Below the pieces are notes generated by a model. It searched no databases. It was not told where the DNA came from and saw nothing but the letters and a program-made list of their open reading frames with translations. Shown one piece after another: positions 10,965 through 40,233 of a stretch of 58,785 nucleotides of DNA; the first letter of the stretch is position 1; every line of letters begins with the position of its first letter. Position numbers and translations under genes: made by a program. Origin of the DNA: a virus (Duplodnaviria; Caudoviricetes); the IMG/VR virus record IMGVR_UViG_3300021507_000132, positions 1 to 58,785 of that record; one strand, given 5' to 3'.

Positions 10965-11543
10965 TTAACTAAAAGTTGGAACTGCATCTAAGCTGTCTGA
11001 ACTTGTTGCTGATTCTACTGTGAAGTTTCCTGCACCTGCTTTTGTATAAGGTGCTGCTTTGAATTTACAAGTTACTTTAAGAATTCCATCTCCAAAAGAA
11101 ACAGGTGTTGCTTCAACAAATCTGGCATTTGTTAGTATAAACCTGCATGCAGCTTTGTTGGTTATTGCACTATCAGCAGAAGTGACAGTAGTATCTTCTG
11201 TAAATAAAACAACCACTTTGAATTGATCTCTGTTTCTGCTATTTGTAACTGAAAGAGGTCCTGTGGTGTCCCAGTTTGCTTTTGTTGTGTGAAACAATTG
11301 TAAAATTCCGGAGTTATCTGTAGTATCTAAGTCTGTAAAGTAAATATCAAAAGACATAACGTATTCTCCTTCAGGGTTTGGTTTTTCCAAACAACCACCA
11401 TTTAATAAGTGTATTATATCAAAATCTTTAGTTCCTTGAGTTATCTCTAAAGAATCTCTGTCTATGCTTCCGTTATATTCTATAAAACTGCCTCCTTTGG
11501 GACAGATAGCTAATAGTCCCCATTCTGTCCAGGCATCTACCAT
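10965..11543 (-). CDS. major tail tube protein
   Basis: 192-aa acidic beta-rich protein upstream of chaperones, with own promoter-like motif and downstream T-tract. Confidence 0.7.
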   Translation of the reverse strand: MVDAWTEWGLLAICPKGGSFIEYNGSIDRDSLEITQGTKDFDIIHLLNGGCLEKPNPEGEYVMSFDIYFTDLDTTDNSGILQLFHTTKANWDTTGPLSVTNSRNRDQFKVVVLFTEDTTVTSADSAITNKAACRFILTNARFVEATPVSFGDGILKVTCKFKAAPYTKAGAGNFTVESATSSDSLDAVPTFS

Positions 11544-11550
11544 ACAATTA

Positions 11551-11808
11551 TTATTCTGCAGAAGTATTTATATCAACTGCCAAATCTATCTCTTTATCTT
11601 CTGTTTCTTCTTTGTATTTCTTTGTTTTTTCTTGTTTTTTTCTGGTTGGTTTCGTATCTTGCTTTGTTTCTGGAGCTTTAGTGATTATTACTGTCTGCCC
11701 TGGCAGAAGTGTAATATCTCTCTGTCTGGCGTAATCATATACTGTTATTGGCTCTTGCGAATTGTTAAGTATCCACTGTTTATTGTCTTCCAAATTCTTT
11801 GTTTTCAT
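11551..11808 (-). CDS. hypothetical protein
   Basis: Co-oriented ORF, charged C-terminus. Confidence 0.5.
   Translation of the reverse strand: MKTKNLEDNKQWILNNSQEPITVYDYARQRDITLLPGQTVIITKAPETKQDTKPTRKKQEKTKKYKEETEDKEIDLAVDINTSAE
11561..11578 (-). promoter_or_regulatory. late promoter motif AGTTGATATAAATACTTC
   Basis: Exact copy at 19053-19070 and near copy at 10685-10701, each 17-25 nt upstream of a structural-gene ATG; contains a TATA box. Confidence 0.7.
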
Positions 11809-11844
11809 AATATTAATTCTTCAACTATTTATATTATGTTTTTT

Positions 11845-11903
11845 GCTGAGTCTTGGTAGAACTCTATTTATTTATGGATTCACTTCTTGTTTGGTAATTT
11901 TAA
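11845..11903 (-). ncRNA. distal remnant of TIGR-like array 1, separated by the IS insertion
   Basis: Minus strand reads CCA-AACAAGAAG-TG-AAT-CCA-TAAATAAAT-AG-AGTTCTA-CCA, i.e. same CCA-N9-(A/T)G spacing. Confidence 0.6.
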
Positions 11904-13128
11904 CCTCATGAGCGGGAAGTCTCCTCCCTTCAAGAAGGGGATGAGAGCGAACCATAAATAATTTATAAATTTGGGTTATATAAATATTATGGTAACCAAA
12001 ATGAAAACAACATATAAATTCAGGTTATATCCAAAGAAAGAGCAAGAAGAAAAACTAATAAGAACACTTGATATATGCAGAGATTTATACAACTATTTGC
12101 TTTCAGAAACAAGGAAAAGGAAGATACATAGATATGAAATACAATCAATGTTGGTTTCTTTGAAAAAAGATAGGAGAGAATTAAACGAAGTTTATTCAAA
12201 GGTATTGCAGATGGTCGTATTTATGCTATCACACAACCTAAAAGTATTACACCGATTAAAGAAAAAAGGCAATAAGGTTGGTAAATTGAGATACAAAAAG
12301 AAGTTCAAGTCATTTATATACAATCAATCTGGTTTCAAAATCATAAAAACGGGTAAAAGATTGGATATATTGAGATTGTCAAAAATAGGGGATATACCAA
12401 TAAGATTACATAGAGATATAGAAGGAAACATAAAACAGACAATAATCAAGAGATACAAATCTGGCAAATGGTTTGCTCTCGTTTGTGTTGATGGTATGAA
12501 AAATAAGGAAAGCGAAAATAATAGAATTGTTGGTATTGATGTTGGTGTAAAATACTTCCTAACAGATAGCGATGGGAGACACATAGAAAATCCAAGATTT
12601 TATGAAAAACTATTGAATAGAATAAAAATAGAACAGAGAAAACTATCAAGAAAGAATAAGGGTTCTAAAAATTGGGAAAAACAGAGAAGAAAATTAGCAA
12701 AATTATTTGAAAAACTTGTAAATAAAAGAAACGATTTTCTACACAAACTATCTAAATTCTATGCTAAAAACTACAAAATCATTTGTGTCGAGGATTTGAA
12801 GATAAAGAACATGGTTAAAAATAGAAATCTTGCACAGAAAATACTTGATGTTTCTTGGGGTGTTTTTATAAGACTGCTATCCTACAAGGTTGAAAGAACT
12901 GGTGGGATGGTGGTTAAGGTAAATCCAAAAAACACCTCAAGAGAGTATAAATTTGGAAAACTTGATAGAGATTATAATGCCTCTCTGAATATAATGATGA
13001 GAGGTTTATCGGGGTTGGGACAACCCTTTGTGCCTGTGGAGATAACACCTCTACGGGAACTCAAGTTAGTTCCCGCAAGTGTCATTGTTGAAGCAGGAAG
13101 CCCCATCCTTTAGGTTAGGGTAGTTCAC
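11904..13128 (+). mobile_element. non-autonomous IS200/IS605-family (tnpB-only) element
   Basis: Left end after TTTAA with hairpin CTCCTCCCTTCAAGAAGGGGATGAG; right end GGAAGCCCCATCCTTTAGGTTAGGGTAGTTCAC; no tnpA. Confidence 0.8.
12001..13113 (+). CDS. tnpB: TnpB RNA-guided endonuclease (zinc ribbon deleted)
   Basis: TYKFRLYP N-terminus; RuvC motifs GIDVG, VEDL, DRDYNA; start could be 11989. Confidence 0.93.
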   Translation: MKTTYKFRLYPKKEQEEKLIRTLDICRDLYNYLLSETRKRKIHRYEIQSMLVSLKKDRRELNEVYSKVLQMVVFMLSHNLKVLHRLKKKGNKVGKLRYKKKFKSFIYNQSGFKIIKTGKRLDILRLSKIGDIPIRLHRDIEGNIKQTIIKRYKSGKWFALVCVDGMKNKESENNRIVGIDVGVKYFLTDSDGRHIENPRFYEKLLNRIKIEQRKLSRKNKGSKNWEKQRRKLAKLFEKLVNKRNDFLHKLSKFYAKNYKIICVEDLKIKNMVKNRNLAQKILDVSWGVFIRLLSYKVERTGGMVVKVNPKNTSREYKFGKLDRDYNASLNIMMRGLSGLGQPFVPVEITPLRELKLVPASVIVEAGSPIL

Positions 13129-13769
13129 CTTTTTCTGGCTTGTTCGCTTAAGCTTTGTGATTTGCTAAAAACATATGGCTCGCTTTGTTAGGTTGGGTTT
13201 CTAATTTTTTGTGACTCATTTTTCTCGCTTTTCTTTCCAGATTATTTTTTGTACTTCAGGCTCGCTCATAGTGTCTTCGGGCACCACTAGTTTTTCTTTT
13301 GAGAATGGCTCGCTCTCCTGCCATGGGTTCCCTAAACTTTAGAGGCTCGCTCTTTCTTTTTGGATCTACTGCTGGTGAATGGCTAAGTCGCTAAACTATA
13401 ATGGGTAATTTCCCTTTATATAGTTGGCTCGCTAAGCACTTTTGGTTTGACTTTTTCCCCGTTGGCTTTAATTCGCTTAAACTCCCAGAGTTTTTGTAAT
13501 CCTTCATAGCTGTTCGCTATTTTTAGGTGGTTTTCTTAAAGCGATTGGCTAATCGCTTCGTGTTTATGGGCTGCTAAATTATGATGGCTGAATTTTTACT
13601 CGCTTTATTTTTTGGGTATGACCTCATAATTATGGCTAGCTTTGGTTTTTAGGGTCTACTAAATATGTGTGGGCTGTAACTTCGCTTAGCTTCAGTGGTT
13701 TTGCTTTCTTTCCACATGGCTTAGAGTAGTTCGCTGGTCTTCTATGGTGAATTCTCTTTTTTAATGGCT
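13129..13769 (-). ncRNA. TIGR-like tandem guide RNA array 1 (~16 units)
   Basis: Minus-strand units AGCCA-N9-AG-(4-9 nt)-CCA-N9-AGCG directly downstream of the Nop-domain gene. Confidence 0.88.
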
Positions 13770-13820
13770 GACGGTTCTTTGTGCTTATAATAAAAAAAAA
13801 GAAAAAAATAAAAAAAGCAA

Positions 13821-14696
13821 TTAAAACAAGCCGTCGGTTAGTGGCGGTTCATCAATATGTTGGTGATTCAGCTTTTCTTCCACGTACGGCGGTCTTATCG
13901 GCAAACCTTTTAGTTTTCTCGCAACGACATAGTAGTGAACCAGAAACCTTTTAACCATCTTTCGCATTGCTCTCCTGTGTATATGCAAAGGCTTCAATTT
14001 CAAATCTGTAACTCCATAGCTGTTAGGATATTTCGCATGAAGTTCTCCTGGTTTGAATTCCATTGCTTCCAATCTTTGTTTTTCTTTGTCATATATTTCC
14101 CGATAATAAGGCGTCCTTTGCTTTAGAAAACTGTCTCCGATCAACCAACTAACAACTTTAGCTCTTGGTCTGTATTGTGCTTTTTCTCCTCGCTTTCTTA
14201 CTCTTGCTTTTCCGTCTACAACGTCAAGACCTGCAAATTTCCATATGCTAGAGGGCGATTTTGCCTCCTCGCAATAACCGAAATTTCTAATCAAATTAAT
14301 TGCCAAGACCTTGGAAATTCCTCTAATTCTTTGTAACCACTGCCATATTGGTTCGTGAGCCAAGAACTCGTCCATTAATTTCAAGCATCTCTTTTCAAGT
14401 CTTTTGGTTTCGTGAGCAATCTGCGTAAATTCTTCTATAAAGCACTGCTCTTCTTTGCTTAATTTGCCTTGTTTTTTGACTATCTCTTTAAGTAGAAATT
14501 CAAGATTTTTGTCTATATATCTATTAATATATGCTTTGTCTTCTTTCCTGTCTTCTGGTATGTTCAACGGCAAATCCTCATATCTCCTTCTGATAAGGTT
14601 TCTGATTCTACTGAAGTTGGCTATCCTCGCTGCCTGGTGTCCGTAGTATACATTTGCTATTATTGTTGCCATTTCCACATTTGGTTTTGGTTCCAT
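13821..14696 (-). CDS. tasA: TIGR-associated Nop-domain protein, TasA-like (IS110-related RNA-binding domain, no nuclease domain)
   Basis: Coiled-coil YYGHQAARIA...; WLQRIRGISKVLA; SSIWKFAGL; YREIYDKEK; HRRAMRKMVKRFL; no DEDD RuvC or HNH domain; adjacent array. Confidence 0.85.
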   Translation of the reverse strand: MEPKPNVEMATIIANVYYGHQAARIANFSRIRNLIRRRYEDLPLNIPEDRKEDKAYINRYIDKNLEFLLKEIVKKQGKLSKEEQCFIEEFTQIAHETKRLEKRCLKLMDEFLAHEPIWQWLQRIRGISKVLAINLIRNFGYCEEAKSPSSIWKFAGLDVVDGKARVRKRGEKAQYRPRAKVVSWLIGDSFLKQRTPYYREIYDKEKQRLEAMEFKPGELHAKYPNSYGVTDLKLKPLHIHRRAMRKMVKRFLVHYYVVARKLKGLPIRPPYVEEKLNHQHIDEPPLTDGLF

Positions 14697-14763
14697 GCAT
14701 AATTAATGTTATTTTTATATTTATTGTTTTCTGTTCTTTATTATATATTTTAAAATAACTATT

Positions 14764-15180
14764 ATGCATTTGATTTTTCTAACAGAAGGACCAGAAACTC
14801 AACACAAACAATTTGTAAAATGGATAAGATCCAGACGATATAAAGAAGAAGGAAAATACAGAACTGGAGATGTTATACCTCATGTGTCTGAAATAAAATT
14901 GTATGATATTCGCATAAAAGCCTCTGCTAAAGACAGATTTTTGCAGGATCTTCAAAATCAAATAGGACTGACAACAAATACTGGTAATGTAAAAAGGCAT
15001 TTAGGCAAAACTCTGGACAGGTTGTATTGGCTCTTATCTAAGTTCACTTCATTAAAGAGAATAATCATTCCTGAACGCACAGAACCAAGAAATCCTAAAG
15101 AATTTAAAGGTTGGTTTTATGTTGTTCCTTTGGGCATGATTGAAGACTCTGTTAATGAAGAAGGAGAAGAATGGCTCTGA
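14764..15180 (+). CDS. hypothetical protein, paralog of 17702-18088
   Basis: Shared MHLI..E, E(I/L)(K/R)L.DI, LG.I.D..NEEG motifs. Confidence 0.75.
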   Translation: MHLIFLTEGPETQHKQFVKWIRSRRYKEEGKYRTGDVIPHVSEIKLYDIRIKASAKDRFLQDLQNQIGLTTNTGNVKRHLGKTLDRLYWLLSKFTSLKRIIIPERTEPRNPKEFKGWFYVVPLGMIEDSVNEEGEEWL

Positions 15181-34451: not shown

Positions 34452-34595
34452 AAGTGTTTATTGTATTTATGGCAAGTCAAACAAATCTCCTATGTTTGAG
34501 CTGTAAAAGACATTATGACAGTACTTGTCCTGGTTGGGTAGAAGACATAACTGTTGCTGGGAAAGCTTGTAAGTACTATATTAAAAAAGATTCTC

Positions 34596-35393
34596 ATGAT
34601 GTTCAACAACAACACTTGTAAAGTCTTGCTAGGAGACTGTTTGGAGCTAATGAAAGAATTGAAAGATGAATCTATAGACATGATTTTAACAGATCCTCCT
34701 TATATGATTTCAAGAGAAGCGAAAATTGCCAGAAGCAGAAATCCTCTCAAGAGAAGGATGAAATATCAAGGCAAAGACATTTCCATGATGTTTGGAGAAT
34801 GGGATATTTTTGAAACTGAAGACCAATACTGGAAGTTCATATATGCTGCATTGAAACAGTTTAAAAGGATACTGAAAATAGGAGGTCATATGCTTATCTT
34901 CTTTGATAGGTTCAAAATTACGCCATTAGTGGAATGGTGCAGAAAGAATGATTTTATAGCAAGGCAGCCATTATGGTGGTTAAAGAGTAATCCAGTTCCA
35001 ATGGCAAAGAAAGTTTCTTTTATGAGTGCTCATGAATTGATTTTCTGGGCAACAAAGCATACCACTTCTAGAAAATACTCTACATTTCACTACGAACTTG
35101 GACAACATCCAGACTATTTCGTTCATTGTATTCCGCCAAAAAAATCAAAATCAGATGGAATAAGACAACACCCTTGCCAAAAACCAGTAAAATTAATGGA
35201 ATGGCTTATATCATATCTTTCAAACGAAAACGATACAATATTAGATCCGTTTGCAGGTTCTGGCACTACTGGCGTTGCTGCTATAAACTTGAACAGAAAA
35301 TGCATCCTTATTGAAAAATCTCCGCATTATTACAGTGTAATAATTTCCAGACTAAAACCTCTTTTGTCCCAAAGAAATTTAAATAATATTTAA
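34596..35393 (+). CDS. DNA methyltransferase (beta class, N4C/N6A)
   Basis: LTDPPY, HPCQKP, LDPFAGSGTT. Confidence 0.93.
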   Translation: MMFNNNTCKVLLGDCLELMKELKDESIDMILTDPPYMISREAKIARSRNPLKRRMKYQGKDISMMFGEWDIFETEDQYWKFIYAALKQFKRILKIGGHMLIFFDRFKITPLVEWCRKNDFIARQPLWWLKSNPVPMAKKVSFMSAHELIFWATKHTTSRKYSTFHYELGQHPDYFVHCIPPKKSKSDGIRQHPCQKPVKLMEWLISYLSNENDTILDPFAGSGTTGVAAINLNRKCILIEKSPHYYSVIISRLKPLLSQRNLNNI

Positions 35394-35613: not shown

Positions 35614-36609
35614 AGCCTCTTTCTGCAAGAAAAACCTGCAAGAGATAGCGAGCCATAAAAAAATAGAAATCCTAAGAAAGTGAGCGAAAACAGCCAAATA
35701 AAGTAAGTAAAACGCCCTTTGGCTCATAGCGAAACAGCCAAAATACAAGAGAAAAACCCTTAAAAGTATAGCGAAATAAACAGCCATAAGATGAAAGCTA
35801 AACCTTAAAATCATAGCGGCAGCCATAAGATGAAAGAAAAGAACCATTAAAGCTTAGCGAGCCTAGTTCACACAGAAAAACCATGTGGAGATAGCAGCCA
35901 CACAAAAGAAGCAAACCTTGTTTAAAAAGCGAATTAGCCACCAATTAACAGAAATCCCAAGAAAGTTGAGCGAGCCTAAAGTCTTCAGACTACCAGAAAG
36001 AGCGAGCGAGCCATCAAGATAGAGTATACCCTTTGGCTAATAGCGGTTAGCCATGTTGAAGAAGCAAACCTTGGTTCTCTAGCATTAGTAGCAAAAAGAG
36101 CGAGCCAAAACCTACAAAGCCAAAAATAGTTAATGAACCTTATAAAATTAGCGAGCCAAAAATGAAGAACAAACTCTGAAACTTCCAGCGAATCTTTGTA
36201 TAGCTGGTATTTAAGAGAAAACTCATAAAAGTATAGCGTTAGCCAATGAAATAAAGAAACCCTAAGATAGATTGCGAGCCATATGAATTGAGAAACCCAT
36301 AATAATCTAGCGTTAGCAGCCAATGAAACCTAGAATCACCTTACTGCAGAAGCGAGCCTGAGAATACAAACAAGCACATAAACTTTGAGCGTGACAGCCT
36401 TATATATATAGCAAAACCCAAGTAACTTGAGCGAGCCAAAAATATCAAGGTGCCCATGAAAGTTGAGCGTGCCTTTGGTTCTTAGCAAACCCAAAAGCAA
36501 AAAGCGAGCCTGGTTTGCATAGCAAACCATAAAATTAAAGCGAGCAACTTAAAGCGACCACTACAAATAAGCGAGTCATATAACTATTGTCACCCATTTA
36601 ACACAAGCG
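35614..36609 (+). ncRNA. TIGR-like tandem guide RNA array 2 (~25 units), orphan
   Basis: Units AGCC(A/T)-N9-AG-(4-7 nt)-CC(A/T)-N9-AGCG, e.g. AGCCA-TATGAATTG-AGAAACCCA-TAATAATCT-AGCG. Confidence 0.9.
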
Positions 36610-36621
36610 AAAATCCCAATA

Positions 36622-37470
36622 CTACTCAAAAATTATCTCAAAATGATCTTCGCCTCTCAAATCTCTTTGTTCTATGCCAACTTTCTTTTTAATCACAGGT
36701 AAGAATTCAGGATTCAACTCTATCCCAATACAATTCCTTCTCAATTCTTTAGCCACTTTCATTGTGGTTCCAGAACCAAGAAAAGGATCCAGAACCCAAT
36801 CACCTTCAAATCCCAGTTCCGGCACAGCAGCAAAAGAAAACATTTTAATAATTCTGGCAGGCAATTCTTCAGGAAACATAGCAATATGTTCTTTCTGTCT
36901 TATCCCCGGAAATTTCCAATGTCCAGTAAAACATTTCCTCCAATCTTCCAAACTCAATTTTGATTCGTCTTTAATTCTCTTATCCAATTTCCTGCTTTTC
37001 CCAGGTTTCTTAAATATCAACACAAATTCATAATCATATTCCACAATCCCGTTCCTAGGATAAGGAAAAGAACCCATAACACTTGCTCCTCCACTGGGAT
37101 TGACATTTCCAACTTTCTGCCATATAATCCCACCCATATAATCAAATCCGATTTTCTCGCATTCCAGAACCAAATTTGCCTGAACCGGTAAAACTTTATA
37201 CCTGCCCAAAACAGGACTGGTATTATAGACGTCGCCAACATTGATAACAAGCCGACAACCAGATTCCAGAACTCTATAACATTCTTTCCACACAATATTC
37301 AGATCTTCAATATACTTCTCAAAAGAACTGCTAAATCCGATTTGATTCTCAATTCCATAATCTTTAATATGAGCATAAGGAGGAGAAGTAACAATTAATT
37401 GAACAGAATTATCAGGCAACCATTTTCTCATATTCCTCGCGTCTCCAATAATTATTTTATATTCGCACAT
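36622..37470 (-). CDS. DNA methyltransferase (beta class, likely N4C)
   Basis: VTSPPY, HIAMFPEEL, LDPFLGSGTT; likely start MCEYKII. Confidence 0.93.
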   Translation of the reverse strand: MCEYKIIIGDARNMRKWLPDNSVQLIVTSPPYAHIKDYGIENQIGFSSSFEKYIEDLNIVWKECYRVLESGCRLVINVGDVYNTSPVLGRYKVLPVQANLVLECEKIGFDYMGGIIWQKVGNVNPSGGASVMGSFPYPRNGIVEYDYEFVLIFKKPGKSRKLDKRIKDESKLSLEDWRKCFTGHWKFPGIRQKEHIAMFPEELPARIIKMFSFAAVPELGFEGDWVLDPFLGSGTTMKVAKELRRNCIGIELNPEFLPVIKKKVGIEQRDLRGEDHFEIIFE

Positions 37471-37474
37471 AATT

Positions 37475-37822
37475 ATGATAAGCACAAAAAACATAATACT
37501 AGTTGCTGTGTTTGTTTTTACAATTTTAATAGGAATTACCAGCGTATATTTGATTGTAAATACAAACTTGTCCAAATACGTGCCGTTAGGATATAAAACC
37601 ATAACCATGGATGGAATAGACAAATATGAAGAAATATCTAGTGATGTTCCTGTTATATTGGTTGTTGAAGGAATTGGCAATATAATAAAAATAAAGGACA
37701 ATACTGAAGTGAAAAAGATAAAAATTAGTGGAATAGATATTGTTATATACCTTCCTTTAGATTGTTATCCTGAAATAGAAGATGATGGCATTGATACAAA
37801 AATAATACATATAAGTAATTAA
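37475..37822 (+). CDS. membrane-anchored small beta-solenoid-like protein
   Basis: N-terminal TM; repeated GID/GIG units. Confidence 0.55.
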   Translation: MISTKNIILVAVFVFTILIGITSVYLIVNTNLSKYVPLGYKTITMDGIDKYEEISSDVPVILVVEGIGNIIKIKDNTEVKKIKISGIDIVIYLPLDCYPEIEDDGIDTKIIHISN

Positions 37823-38032: not shown

Positions 38033-38601
38033 AGCACCTCACTCCATATCTCATTTCTCTCCGTGAAACTATATTTTCCAGTATATAAATCACAAAATAT
38101 ATTTTCTACAATATAAATCTCTAAATTTTGTATTTATCTCTAAAATACTCCAAAAATATGAGCATATATAACATTTATTATATGTTTTGCATTATATATT
38201 TTTTATTGCATTTGTCAGATTTCCTAGGTCTAGAATATATAATGGATTATATACAACTGAGAATATAAAACAAATAAGAATTTATTTTTATTATTCTAAA
38301 ATAAAAAATCTAAATTTTTGGGTTTTTATATGGATTTTCTTAAAAATATGAAGATTTATATTCTTGATAATATAAAAATTGTATTCTTGATTATATATTT
38401 TGGATAATATAAAAAAATCTAATTTGTTAATATTCTCTTAATACTCTAAAAATTTTATGTCTTATTTTTGGATATTTCTTTTATTTTATATTTTTTGATT
38501 TATATTTTTTGCAACAGAAAACTATATATATTAATTATGTTTATTTTTATTATCTTATCCCATCCCATCCTAGTGGATGGGGTTGGATAAGATTTCCAAA
38601 T

Positions 38602-39682: not shown

Positions 39683-40233
39683 TATATAAATAATTTTGAT
39701 TTGAATGCTTAATATTTAAATAATATTTAAATGTTTTTAGTATTTTCTATGATTTTTGAGGTTTTGAAGCATAATAATTATGCTTATTTTTAATACCATT
39801 TAAATAATATATAAATATTCTCTTTTAAAAAGTCATTTATTTAAATAAAATATATATGCTTTTTTAGTATATTTTTAATGCTTTTAATATGGGTTTAATT
39901 GATTAAAAAATATAGAAAAATAAAATTTCAAGTAATTATGTTTATTTTTACTCAAGACTAAATTTAATACATTAACAAAAATAAACATAATTATTAAGAG
40001 TGGGTTTTGGTGAAGGCTGGGTGAGGGAGTGTAAGTATCCCCCACCCAGATTTTACAATTGAATAGTTAAACCAGCTAGATTTTATTCTAAATAGTTAAT
40101 CCTTCAGCCAGATTTTACAATTAAATCGTTATTATCTATCTTCTCTAGATTTTAATTTATATTAAACAATAATATTTTTCTATTATGAAAAAAGGAGTTA
40201 TTAAAAGAATTAAAAAAATGAATAAAACAATAA

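Follow-up and report, generated by a model that had tools for sequence, protein, structure and literature searches.

A tnpA-less TnpB element within a viral TIGR array is probably an incidental, tolerated insertion

Introduction

What does it mean when a mobile element that encodes one RNA-guided nuclease lies inside the guide array of another RNA-guided system? This question is raised by IMG/VR record IMGVR_UViG_3300021507_000132, a metagenome-derived genome of a tailed virus (Caudoviricetes) that is classed as a provirus and estimated to be 78% complete. The whole record (58,785 bp, 33% GC) was analysed here and is referred to as the window. At 11904-13128 on the plus strand (1,225 bp), it carries a tnpA-less TnpB element of the IS200/IS605 type, which is flanked on both sides by TIGR repeats of an array next to a Tas-family gene. 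An earlier note, made from the sequence alone, had described this arrangement and had proposed that the guide of the element is antisense TIGR sequence, so that one RNA-guided system would parasitise another. Metagenome runs containing this region come from hydrothermal vents and marine sediments, and the host of the virus is probably archaeal.

Copies that lack tnpA are common in the IS200/IS605 family, and natural insertions of insertion sequences (IS) into CRISPR arrays are also common. For TIGR arrays, IS1 insertions were reported among Escherichia coli escapers by Faure et al. (2025, PMC12045711); the insertion described here differs from these in being natural and viral, and in that the element itself encodes an RNA-guided nuclease. 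The TIGRFinder preprint (10.64898/2026.09.09.750476) mentions TnpB once, as a structural comparison. In the literature covered, no publication was found that describes TnpB elements in natural TIGR arrays, although supplementary tables could list such loci. Our analysis indicates that a non-autonomous IS200/IS605 element very probably inserted 3' of a TTTAA motif in a degenerate TIGR unit, and that this was probably an incidental and tolerated event.

Results and discussion

The TnpB element and its boundaries

An open frame at 11971-13113 (+) contains three TnpB Pfam domains: HTH_OrfB_IS605 (E = 4.9e-13), OrfB_IS605 (E = 7.8e-27) and a shortened Cas12f1-like_TNB (E = 2.3e-08), the last with 46 residues for 60 profile positions. 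The start of tnpB was placed at ATG 12001, based on an alignment of relatives and the position of the HTH domain, which gives a coding sequence of 370 aa (12001-13113, plus strand). Residues 5-312 match the structure chains of ISDra2 TnpB (E = 2.6e-42). The window protein was aligned with 11 of the 120 homologues listed (alignment A1, 12 sequences), and the RuvC triad (D180, E264 and D324) is invariant throughout, with D324 aligned to the DRD motif of ISDra2 (chain positions 359-361). Both the HTH/WED-REC-RuvC architecture and the D-E-D triad are shared with IS200/IS605 TnpB proteins such as ISDra2, SisTnpB1/SisTnpB7 and ISAam1.

Unlike a typical IS200/IS605 TnpB, the window protein has no C4 zinc finger between RuvC-II and RuvC-III and no CxxC pairs, and this region is approximately 20 residues shorter than in the more distant viral relatives L010-L023, which keep the C4 zinc finger. 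Decay of this particular copy was considered and rejected as an explanation. None of the 11 aligned relatives (367-393 aa, mostly archaeal) has the zinc finger either, yet all keep the D-E-D triad, and loss of the zinc finger is described for large TnpB branches (PMC10691335); the loss is therefore a trait of the clade. Assignment to clade RIIIr-4 of the same study was also rejected, as His replaces the RuvC-III Asp in that clade, whereas the window protein keeps DRDYN. At E <= 0.001, 5,761 of 8,000 scored candidates were homologues, and the 120 listed are 57-67% identical to the window protein and 367-408 aa in length. Archaeal assemblies, including Bathyarchaeia, Nitrososphaeria, Methanomethylicia and Hadarchaeota, supply 77 of the 80 best genome loci, and a phage collection yielded only six distant matches, to Campylobacter-phage TnpB proteins (65-67% identical over 27-28% of the query). 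Two features of the relatives are recorded here in passing. The RuvC-III motif reads RDWISA in a subgroup of A1 and DRDYNAS in the window protein, and a small gene lies upstream of tnpB and overlaps its start in loci L028, L032, L033, L037 and L040; upstream genes of an RHH/MazE type are described in PMC10691335, and this one may belong with them.

The boundaries of the element were defined by comparison with the best 80 genome loci of TnpB relatives. Of these loci, 44 share with the window a right-end motif, ...GAAGCAGGAAGCC-hairpin-GGGTAGTTCAC, which across loci takes the form of GAAGCAGGAAGCC, a variable hairpin and then GGGTAG(T/C)TCAC. Past TCAC there is no similarity between loci, and the next base varies freely (A15/T13/G10/C6). 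In the window, the corresponding last stretch, GTAGTTCAC, finishes at 13128. The left end (11904-11960, plus strand) carries the motif GCGGGAAGTC...GGGGATGAGAGC; its family form, GCGGGAAGTC...GGGGATGA(G/A)AGC, was found in 16 of the 80 loci and spans 11904-11955 in the window. In 14 of these 16 loci, TTTAAC lies 7-8 nt upstream of the motif, and the sequence before TTTAAC is unrelated. Apart from a single C at 11904 and 13129, no direct repeats surround the element. The comparison thus bears out the limits given in the earlier note (11904-13128, preceded by TTTAA and ending in TCAC), in letters as well as in coordinates.

TTTAA (11899-11903, plus strand) is taken as the insertion target and, by prediction, as the target-adjacent motif (TAM) of the TnpB protein. 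The same motif has been published as the TAM for SisTnpB1, from the archaeon Sulfolobus islandicus, and for ISAam1, and by their published descriptions these elements likewise insert 3' of a TTTAA that doubles as TAM. As the next base, C11904, is conserved in the relatives, it could belong to the target (TTTAAC) instead of the element; the published TTTAA TAMs favour C11904 as the first base of the element, and it is treated as such here. An apparent junction between a right end and a left end in L053 was inspected in this context and discarded, as it contains no left end and leaves the assignment of C11904 unsettled.

When folded alone as DNA, the two ends were no better than shuffles (left z 0.05, right z 1.75). 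The structural case rests instead on covariation within an alignment of the 150 nt before the right end (alignment A2, the window plus 23 of 45 right ends found, 24 sequences), where 20 of 29 predicted pairs show compensatory changes. We read this conserved 150-nt structure as a candidate omegaRNA scaffold, which in the window is predicted to cover 12990-13128 (plus strand, 5' limit approximate), to overlap the 3' end of tnpB and to end in GUAGUUCAC; its terminal hairpin contains one C-A mismatch. An omegaRNA that overlaps the 3' end of tnpB and takes its guide from the right flank is the usual arrangement in IS200/IS605 TnpB elements, and is predicted here. An Rfam search of 11000-15000 returned two sub-threshold chance matches and no omegaRNA families. 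Upstream of tnpB, the AT-rich motif TTTATAAA at 11962-11969 resembles a TATA box and would fit an archaeal promoter.

The element occurs once in the record, and no Y1 transposase (PF01797) was found in this 78% complete sequence. In a relative, L025, a Y1_Tnp gene (E = 1e-39) is located just upstream of a 64%-identical TnpB, and the window element can be classed by its sequence as a non-autonomous member of an IS200/IS605 lineage that has autonomous relatives. The single copy, the missing tnpA and the missing zinc finger of the TNB domain could also point to a domesticated protein, an RNA-guided DNA binder that is no longer mobile and that the virus would retain for a function such as regulation of the TIGR locus. 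TldR proteins (bioRxiv 10.1101/2023.11.30.569447) provide a precedent, as they are derived from TnpB and, as here, a guide could address a fixed genomic site. We consider this very improbable. TldR proteins are nuclease-dead transcription factors, whereas the D-E-D triad is invariant here and the mobile-type left and right ends are intact. The loss of the zinc finger is shared with the A1 relatives, including L025 with its Y1 transposase, and close relatives of the virus lack the tnpB gene.

The TIGR array on both sides of the element

On the minus strand, a Tas-family gene (13821-14696) encodes a 291-aa protein that is similar to solved TasH chains (E = 4.6e-19, query residues 112-284) and to 9mty_A (E = 1.6e-28). 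It gave no match to the Pfam Nop model and only a weak match to Transposase_20. No nuclease domain was detected in this protein, and it is therefore called TasA-like. Array 1 follows downstream, on the strand of tas, and was parsed into 17 units. The Tas-proximal part (13129-13769, minus strand) comprises units 1-15 and the 5' part of unit 16, as supported by repeat parsing and by the sibling virus L002, and the Tas-distal remnant (11845-11903, minus strand) was identified by repeat parsing and a pattern test. Edge repeats follow the form AGCGA-(0 to 10 nt)-AGCCA, often split by a linker, loop repeats follow AG...CCA/CCC, and spacers are mostly 9 nt in length. As the repeats end in CCA, the RNA sense is the minus strand. 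An AT-rich, TATA-like stretch at 13785-13800, between tas and the array, is conserved in L002 and would fit an archaeal promoter.

This organisation is comparable to published TIGR-Tas loci, in which edge and loop repeats alternate in an array beside a Tas gene (Faure et al. 2025, PMC12045711; TIGRFinder preprint 10.64898/2026.09.09.750476). Repeats that end in CCA (box C), spacers of approximately 9 nt, degenerate terminal repeats and a position downstream of tas are all shared with the loci described in PMC12045711. Box D is AG in the window, in contrast to the UG of that description, and the frequent splitting of edge repeats by linkers of 0-10 nt makes the array intermediate between dual-repeat and stem-loop arrays. 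Further differences from published TIGR-Tas loci are that one array is interrupted by an IS element and that a second array, without tas, lies 22 kb away. Tandem Repeats Finder reported neither TIGR array.

The 59-nt remnant continues the array in register. In RNA sense, it begins with the last 2 nt of spacer A, followed by loop AAAATTACCA (11901-11892) and a 9-nt spacer B (11891-11883), which together complete unit 16. These are followed by a degenerate unit 17, consisting of edge TGAATCCA, a 9-nt spacer, loop AGAGTTCTACCA and a further 9-nt spacer, down to 11845. A regular expression for three consecutive steps of box C, 9 nt and box D found matches nowhere in the window except in its two TIGR arrays, where they include 11844-11894, and composition shuffles gave a mean of 0.065 matches to this three-step pattern. 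Removal of 11904-13128 closes unit 16 with two 9-nt spacers, like most other units; the distance from edge to loop in the other units of array 1 is 18-21 nt. The claim of the earlier note that deleting the element restores an exact unit holds insofar as the two 9-nt spacers close, but the unit is not uniquely fixed: if C11904 belongs to the target, the restored spacer is 10 nt instead of 9, and array 1 tolerates both lengths. The placement of a TnpB element inside a TIGR array is therefore supported by the sequence and by comparison with the element's family.

Predicted guide and target

The guide of an IS200/IS605 TnpB is specified by the DNA just 3' of the right end, which is an established rule (PMC8612924). 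Applied to the window copy, this predicts a guide at 13129-13148 (plus strand), the flank CTTTTTCTGGCTTGTTCGCT directly after the conserved right end. On the minus strand, this flank consists of the edge repeat AGCGA-ACA-AGCCA (13148-13136) and 7 nt of spacer A (13135-13129), so that the predicted guide reads as the antisense of these two parts of unit 16, with the spacer bases first. The antisense guide proposed by the earlier note is thus what the rule would predict. The first 7 bases of the guide are specific to this spacer, and the edge repeat that follows therefore adds no further targets. For the first 16 nt of the guide, no other site in the window was found at <=2 mismatches; five further sites were found at 3 mismatches, and the only one of these whose upstream bases were read (11636) is not preceded by TTTAA.

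In the opposite direction, no spacer pair of array 1 matches inside the TnpB element at <=2 mismatches. Array 1 as a whole has 10 self-target matches, compared with 7.4 in shuffles, which is no excess (69 of 300 shuffles reach 10), and no TIGR self-target match falls in the TnpB element.

Assembly evidence and element-free relatives

As the record is a metagenome-derived provirus, and its habitats are rich in related insertion sequences, the locus could be an assembly chimera of a host insertion sequence and viral DNA; a depth spike in run X3 at 11948-12078, up to 188.8, could be seen in the same light. Contigs from two runs make this reading scarcely credible. In X1, which may be the sample behind the window assembly, a single contig (record 4, 11142-13334, 0 differences) bridges both junctions, and sequencing depth is 11.6 over the element and 11.6-12.7 over its flanks. 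In X2, two contigs cover one junction each without differences (records 13, 11702-12062, and 15, 13081-14576). The filled allele is the only one assembled in either run, and the two flanks join as one array unit.

Relatives of the virus that lack the element were found in L002 and in run X4. The Tas protein of L002 is 83% identical to that of the window, and the gene order is the same, with tas, a six-unit array of like design and a homologue of the 85-aa gene that is located at 11551-11808 in the window. L002 contains no TnpB, its spacers are unlike those of the window, and the whole 59 nt of 11845-11903 is absent. The X4 relative (record 27) matches the window over 11538-11903 with 14 differences and 4 gaps. 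This match ends exactly at 11903, and the contig then runs on for 28 nt into array sequence, where, in array sense, loop AGAAACCC is followed by edge AGCGAATCA after a spacer of 10 nt. The X4 array shares 13357-13557 and 13625-13701 with the window, and depth is zero over 11948-12602. The target, TTTAA followed by CTTTTTCTGGCT, is absent from both element-free relatives. The empty-site search suggested in the earlier note thus succeeded in finding relatives without the element, but neither carries the target. The same note had named different junctions in empty alleles as evidence against it, and X4 provides this in half: the left junction at 11903 is shared, and an edge repeat then follows directly.

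Among metagenome contigs, a single exact match to the 23-nt left flank (11881-11903) was obtained, in L104 (869-891, minus strand), and was judged to be due to chance. L104 is an unrelated 1.6-kb contig with nothing else in common with the window, the match lies inside an integrase-like reading frame, and it covers the loop repeat and parts of two spacers, a geometry unlike that of a TIGR target. Among viral contigs, the 23-nt flank gave no matches.

The X4 junction also bears on whether 11845-11903 is genuine array sequence. Conceivably, the element inserted at the junction between a terminal edge repeat and a conserved trailer that only resembles TIGR units. In X4, a terminal-type edge abuts 11903 and resembles the last edge of L002, AGCGAGTCA, and the repeats within 11845-11903 are degenerate, with TGAATCCA as an edge and a loop that starts with AA instead of AG. 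Four observations argue against a trailer. With the element removed, the order of edge, 9, loop, 9, edge, 9, loop, 9 is in register; the array pattern matches 11844-11894 and otherwise only arrays; L002 lacks the whole 59 nt; and in X3 the similarity of three contigs to the window breaks off at 11846, 11871 and 11903. All three positions fall in spacers of the distal units, and the breaks at 11846 and 11871 are what variable spacers would produce, which supports 11845-11903 as real units that vary between strains. We therefore regard a trailer as unlikely. If it were correct, the placement inside a spacer would be wrong in detail, while the placement inside the array locus would still hold.

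Why the element lies in the array

The reading that we favour as very probable is a tolerated, incidental insertion. An IS200/IS605 element that lacks its own transposase, and would be mobilised in trans by a host TnpA, would have inserted 3' of TTTAA in the penultimate, already degenerate unit of the array. This would have split spacer A and moved the last one and a half units 1.2 kb from the rest. Because a TnpB guide comes from the right-end flank, the omegaRNA would then carry ~16-20 nt complementary to the pre-tigRNA. With TTTAA as TAM, the complex would recognise or cut only an uninterrupted unit 16, which would be the usual self-retention or homing function of a TnpB protein. The TIGR system would lose little by this, as a single distal unit is interrupted and only the last one and a half units, which are degenerate, are separated from the predicted promoter region of the array.

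Tolerance is the simplest account of the location, since the array is among the two longest non-coding stretches of a compact genome and the interrupted unit is both distal and degenerate. A recurrent association was not observed: TnpB is present in none of eight other Tas loci, and a TIGR-like pattern in none of 94 loci of TnpB relatives. The earlier note's proposal of parasitism between RNA-guided systems consequently finds little to build on, as nothing here goes beyond what any TnpB would do at its own insertion site.

A number of points weigh against a simple, chance insertion of this kind. As the edge AGCGAATCA of X4 directly abuts 11903, the 12 nt of 13129-13140 have no counterpart there, and their absence does not follow from simple insertion of the element into an ancestor like X4. 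The X4 unit next to the junction also differs from that of the window. The half-unit may have been lost in X4, may never have been present, or X4 may display the true ancestral end of the array. As no exact empty site was found, the pre-insertion sequence is a reconstruction. X2 shares year and habitat with X1, the possible source of the window, which makes its independence uncertain. The window contains 515 TTTAA sites, of which five are in the array and, by a crude estimate, 120 are in non-coding DNA, so a random TTTAA would fall in the array about 1% of the time (5/515), or 4% within non-coding DNA (5/120); chance by itself therefore explains the location poorly, and tolerance is assumed. 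Cleavage by the zinc-finger-less clade is predicted from sequence. The predicted guide also has a T5 run at positions 2-6 (13130-13134), which might terminate transcription in archaea too early for a functional guide to be produced.

Some of the same observations could suggest a functional interaction, in which the element homes like a gene drive into the arrays of co-infecting siblings, interferes with pre-tigRNA as an antisense RNA, or both. The predicted guide would base-pair with the array transcript, the left junction offers a TAM, only the filled allele was assembled in X1 and X2, with element depth equal to flank depth in X1, and X4 lacks exactly 12 nt beside the TAM, which an escape deletion could explain, although this is speculation. 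Such an interaction is nevertheless improbable. Any TnpB element would home to its own empty site, whether or not TIGR is involved; the spacer-specific start of the guide means that other units and arrays are not targets; the pairing of TnpB and TIGR does not recur; and, as the neighbouring unit of X4 is also different, more than a 12-nt deletion separates the two alleles. The arrays of L002 and X4 have different spacers at this end, which, with the missing target, also speaks against the homing into sibling viruses' arrays that the earlier note envisaged. A full drive, in which the element cuts genomes that carry unit 16 and is copied in by recombination, X4-like deletions survive and antisense RNA damps the distal array, is a little more improbable again. 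If this were true, the evolution of one RNA-guided system would be shaped in nature by another.

Overall, the TnpB element is of a known kind, in an unusual and noteworthy but probably incidental place. A clean, boundary-resolved natural insertion of TnpB into a TIGR array, in what is probably an archaeal vent virus, suggests that TIGR arrays, like CRISPR arrays, can serve as landing pads that tolerate mobile elements. The locus also supplies a compact TnpB protein (370 aa, no zinc finger) whose omegaRNA end is defined and whose TAM is likely to be TTTAA; the closest protein found, among the matches listed, is about 66% identical.

Variable spacers, a second array and a possible self-target

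For TIGR biology, the locus itself may be of more interest than the insertion, as it combines two arrays with one Tas gene, spacers that vary between strains and a self-match of one array unit. The strain variation is apparent from a comparison of the X4 array with array 1, where the units are near letter-for-letter the same except for a 67-nt diverged stretch of equal length (13558-13624). This looks like a replacement of spacers within an otherwise conserved array, and may bear on how TIGR arrays change.

The second TIGR array (35647-36640, plus strand) is longer than array 1, with approximately 25 units that are mostly of a canonical 36-nt form (AGCGAGCCA, 9 nt, AG..CC, 9 nt). It is 22 kb from the only tas gene in the record and sits between two N6_N4 DNA methylase genes (34554-35393, plus strand, and 36622-37701, minus strand). 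Two of its neighbouring units have an identical spacer A. Self-target matches of array 2 number 8, compared with 8.3 in shuffles, which is no excess.

Unit 4 of array 1 (~13600-13640, minus strand) has a spacer pair that matches 16 of 18 nt of an approximately 24-nt repeat in a gapless tandem arrangement, where 8 nt equal to spacer A are followed by one base and then by 8 nt equal to the reverse complement of spacer B. The repeat occurs at 38532-38549, 39775-39792 and 39933-39950 in plus orientation and, inverted, at 39976-39993, and all four copies are in or at the edge of AT-rich intergenic regions. Four matches for one unit with this geometry were obtained in 1 of 300 spacer shuffles, while total matches were not above shuffles. 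The repeat is a possible natural self-target of the TasA-like protein, in line with the TasA repressor activity reported in the TIGRFinder preprint (10.64898/2026.09.09.750476).

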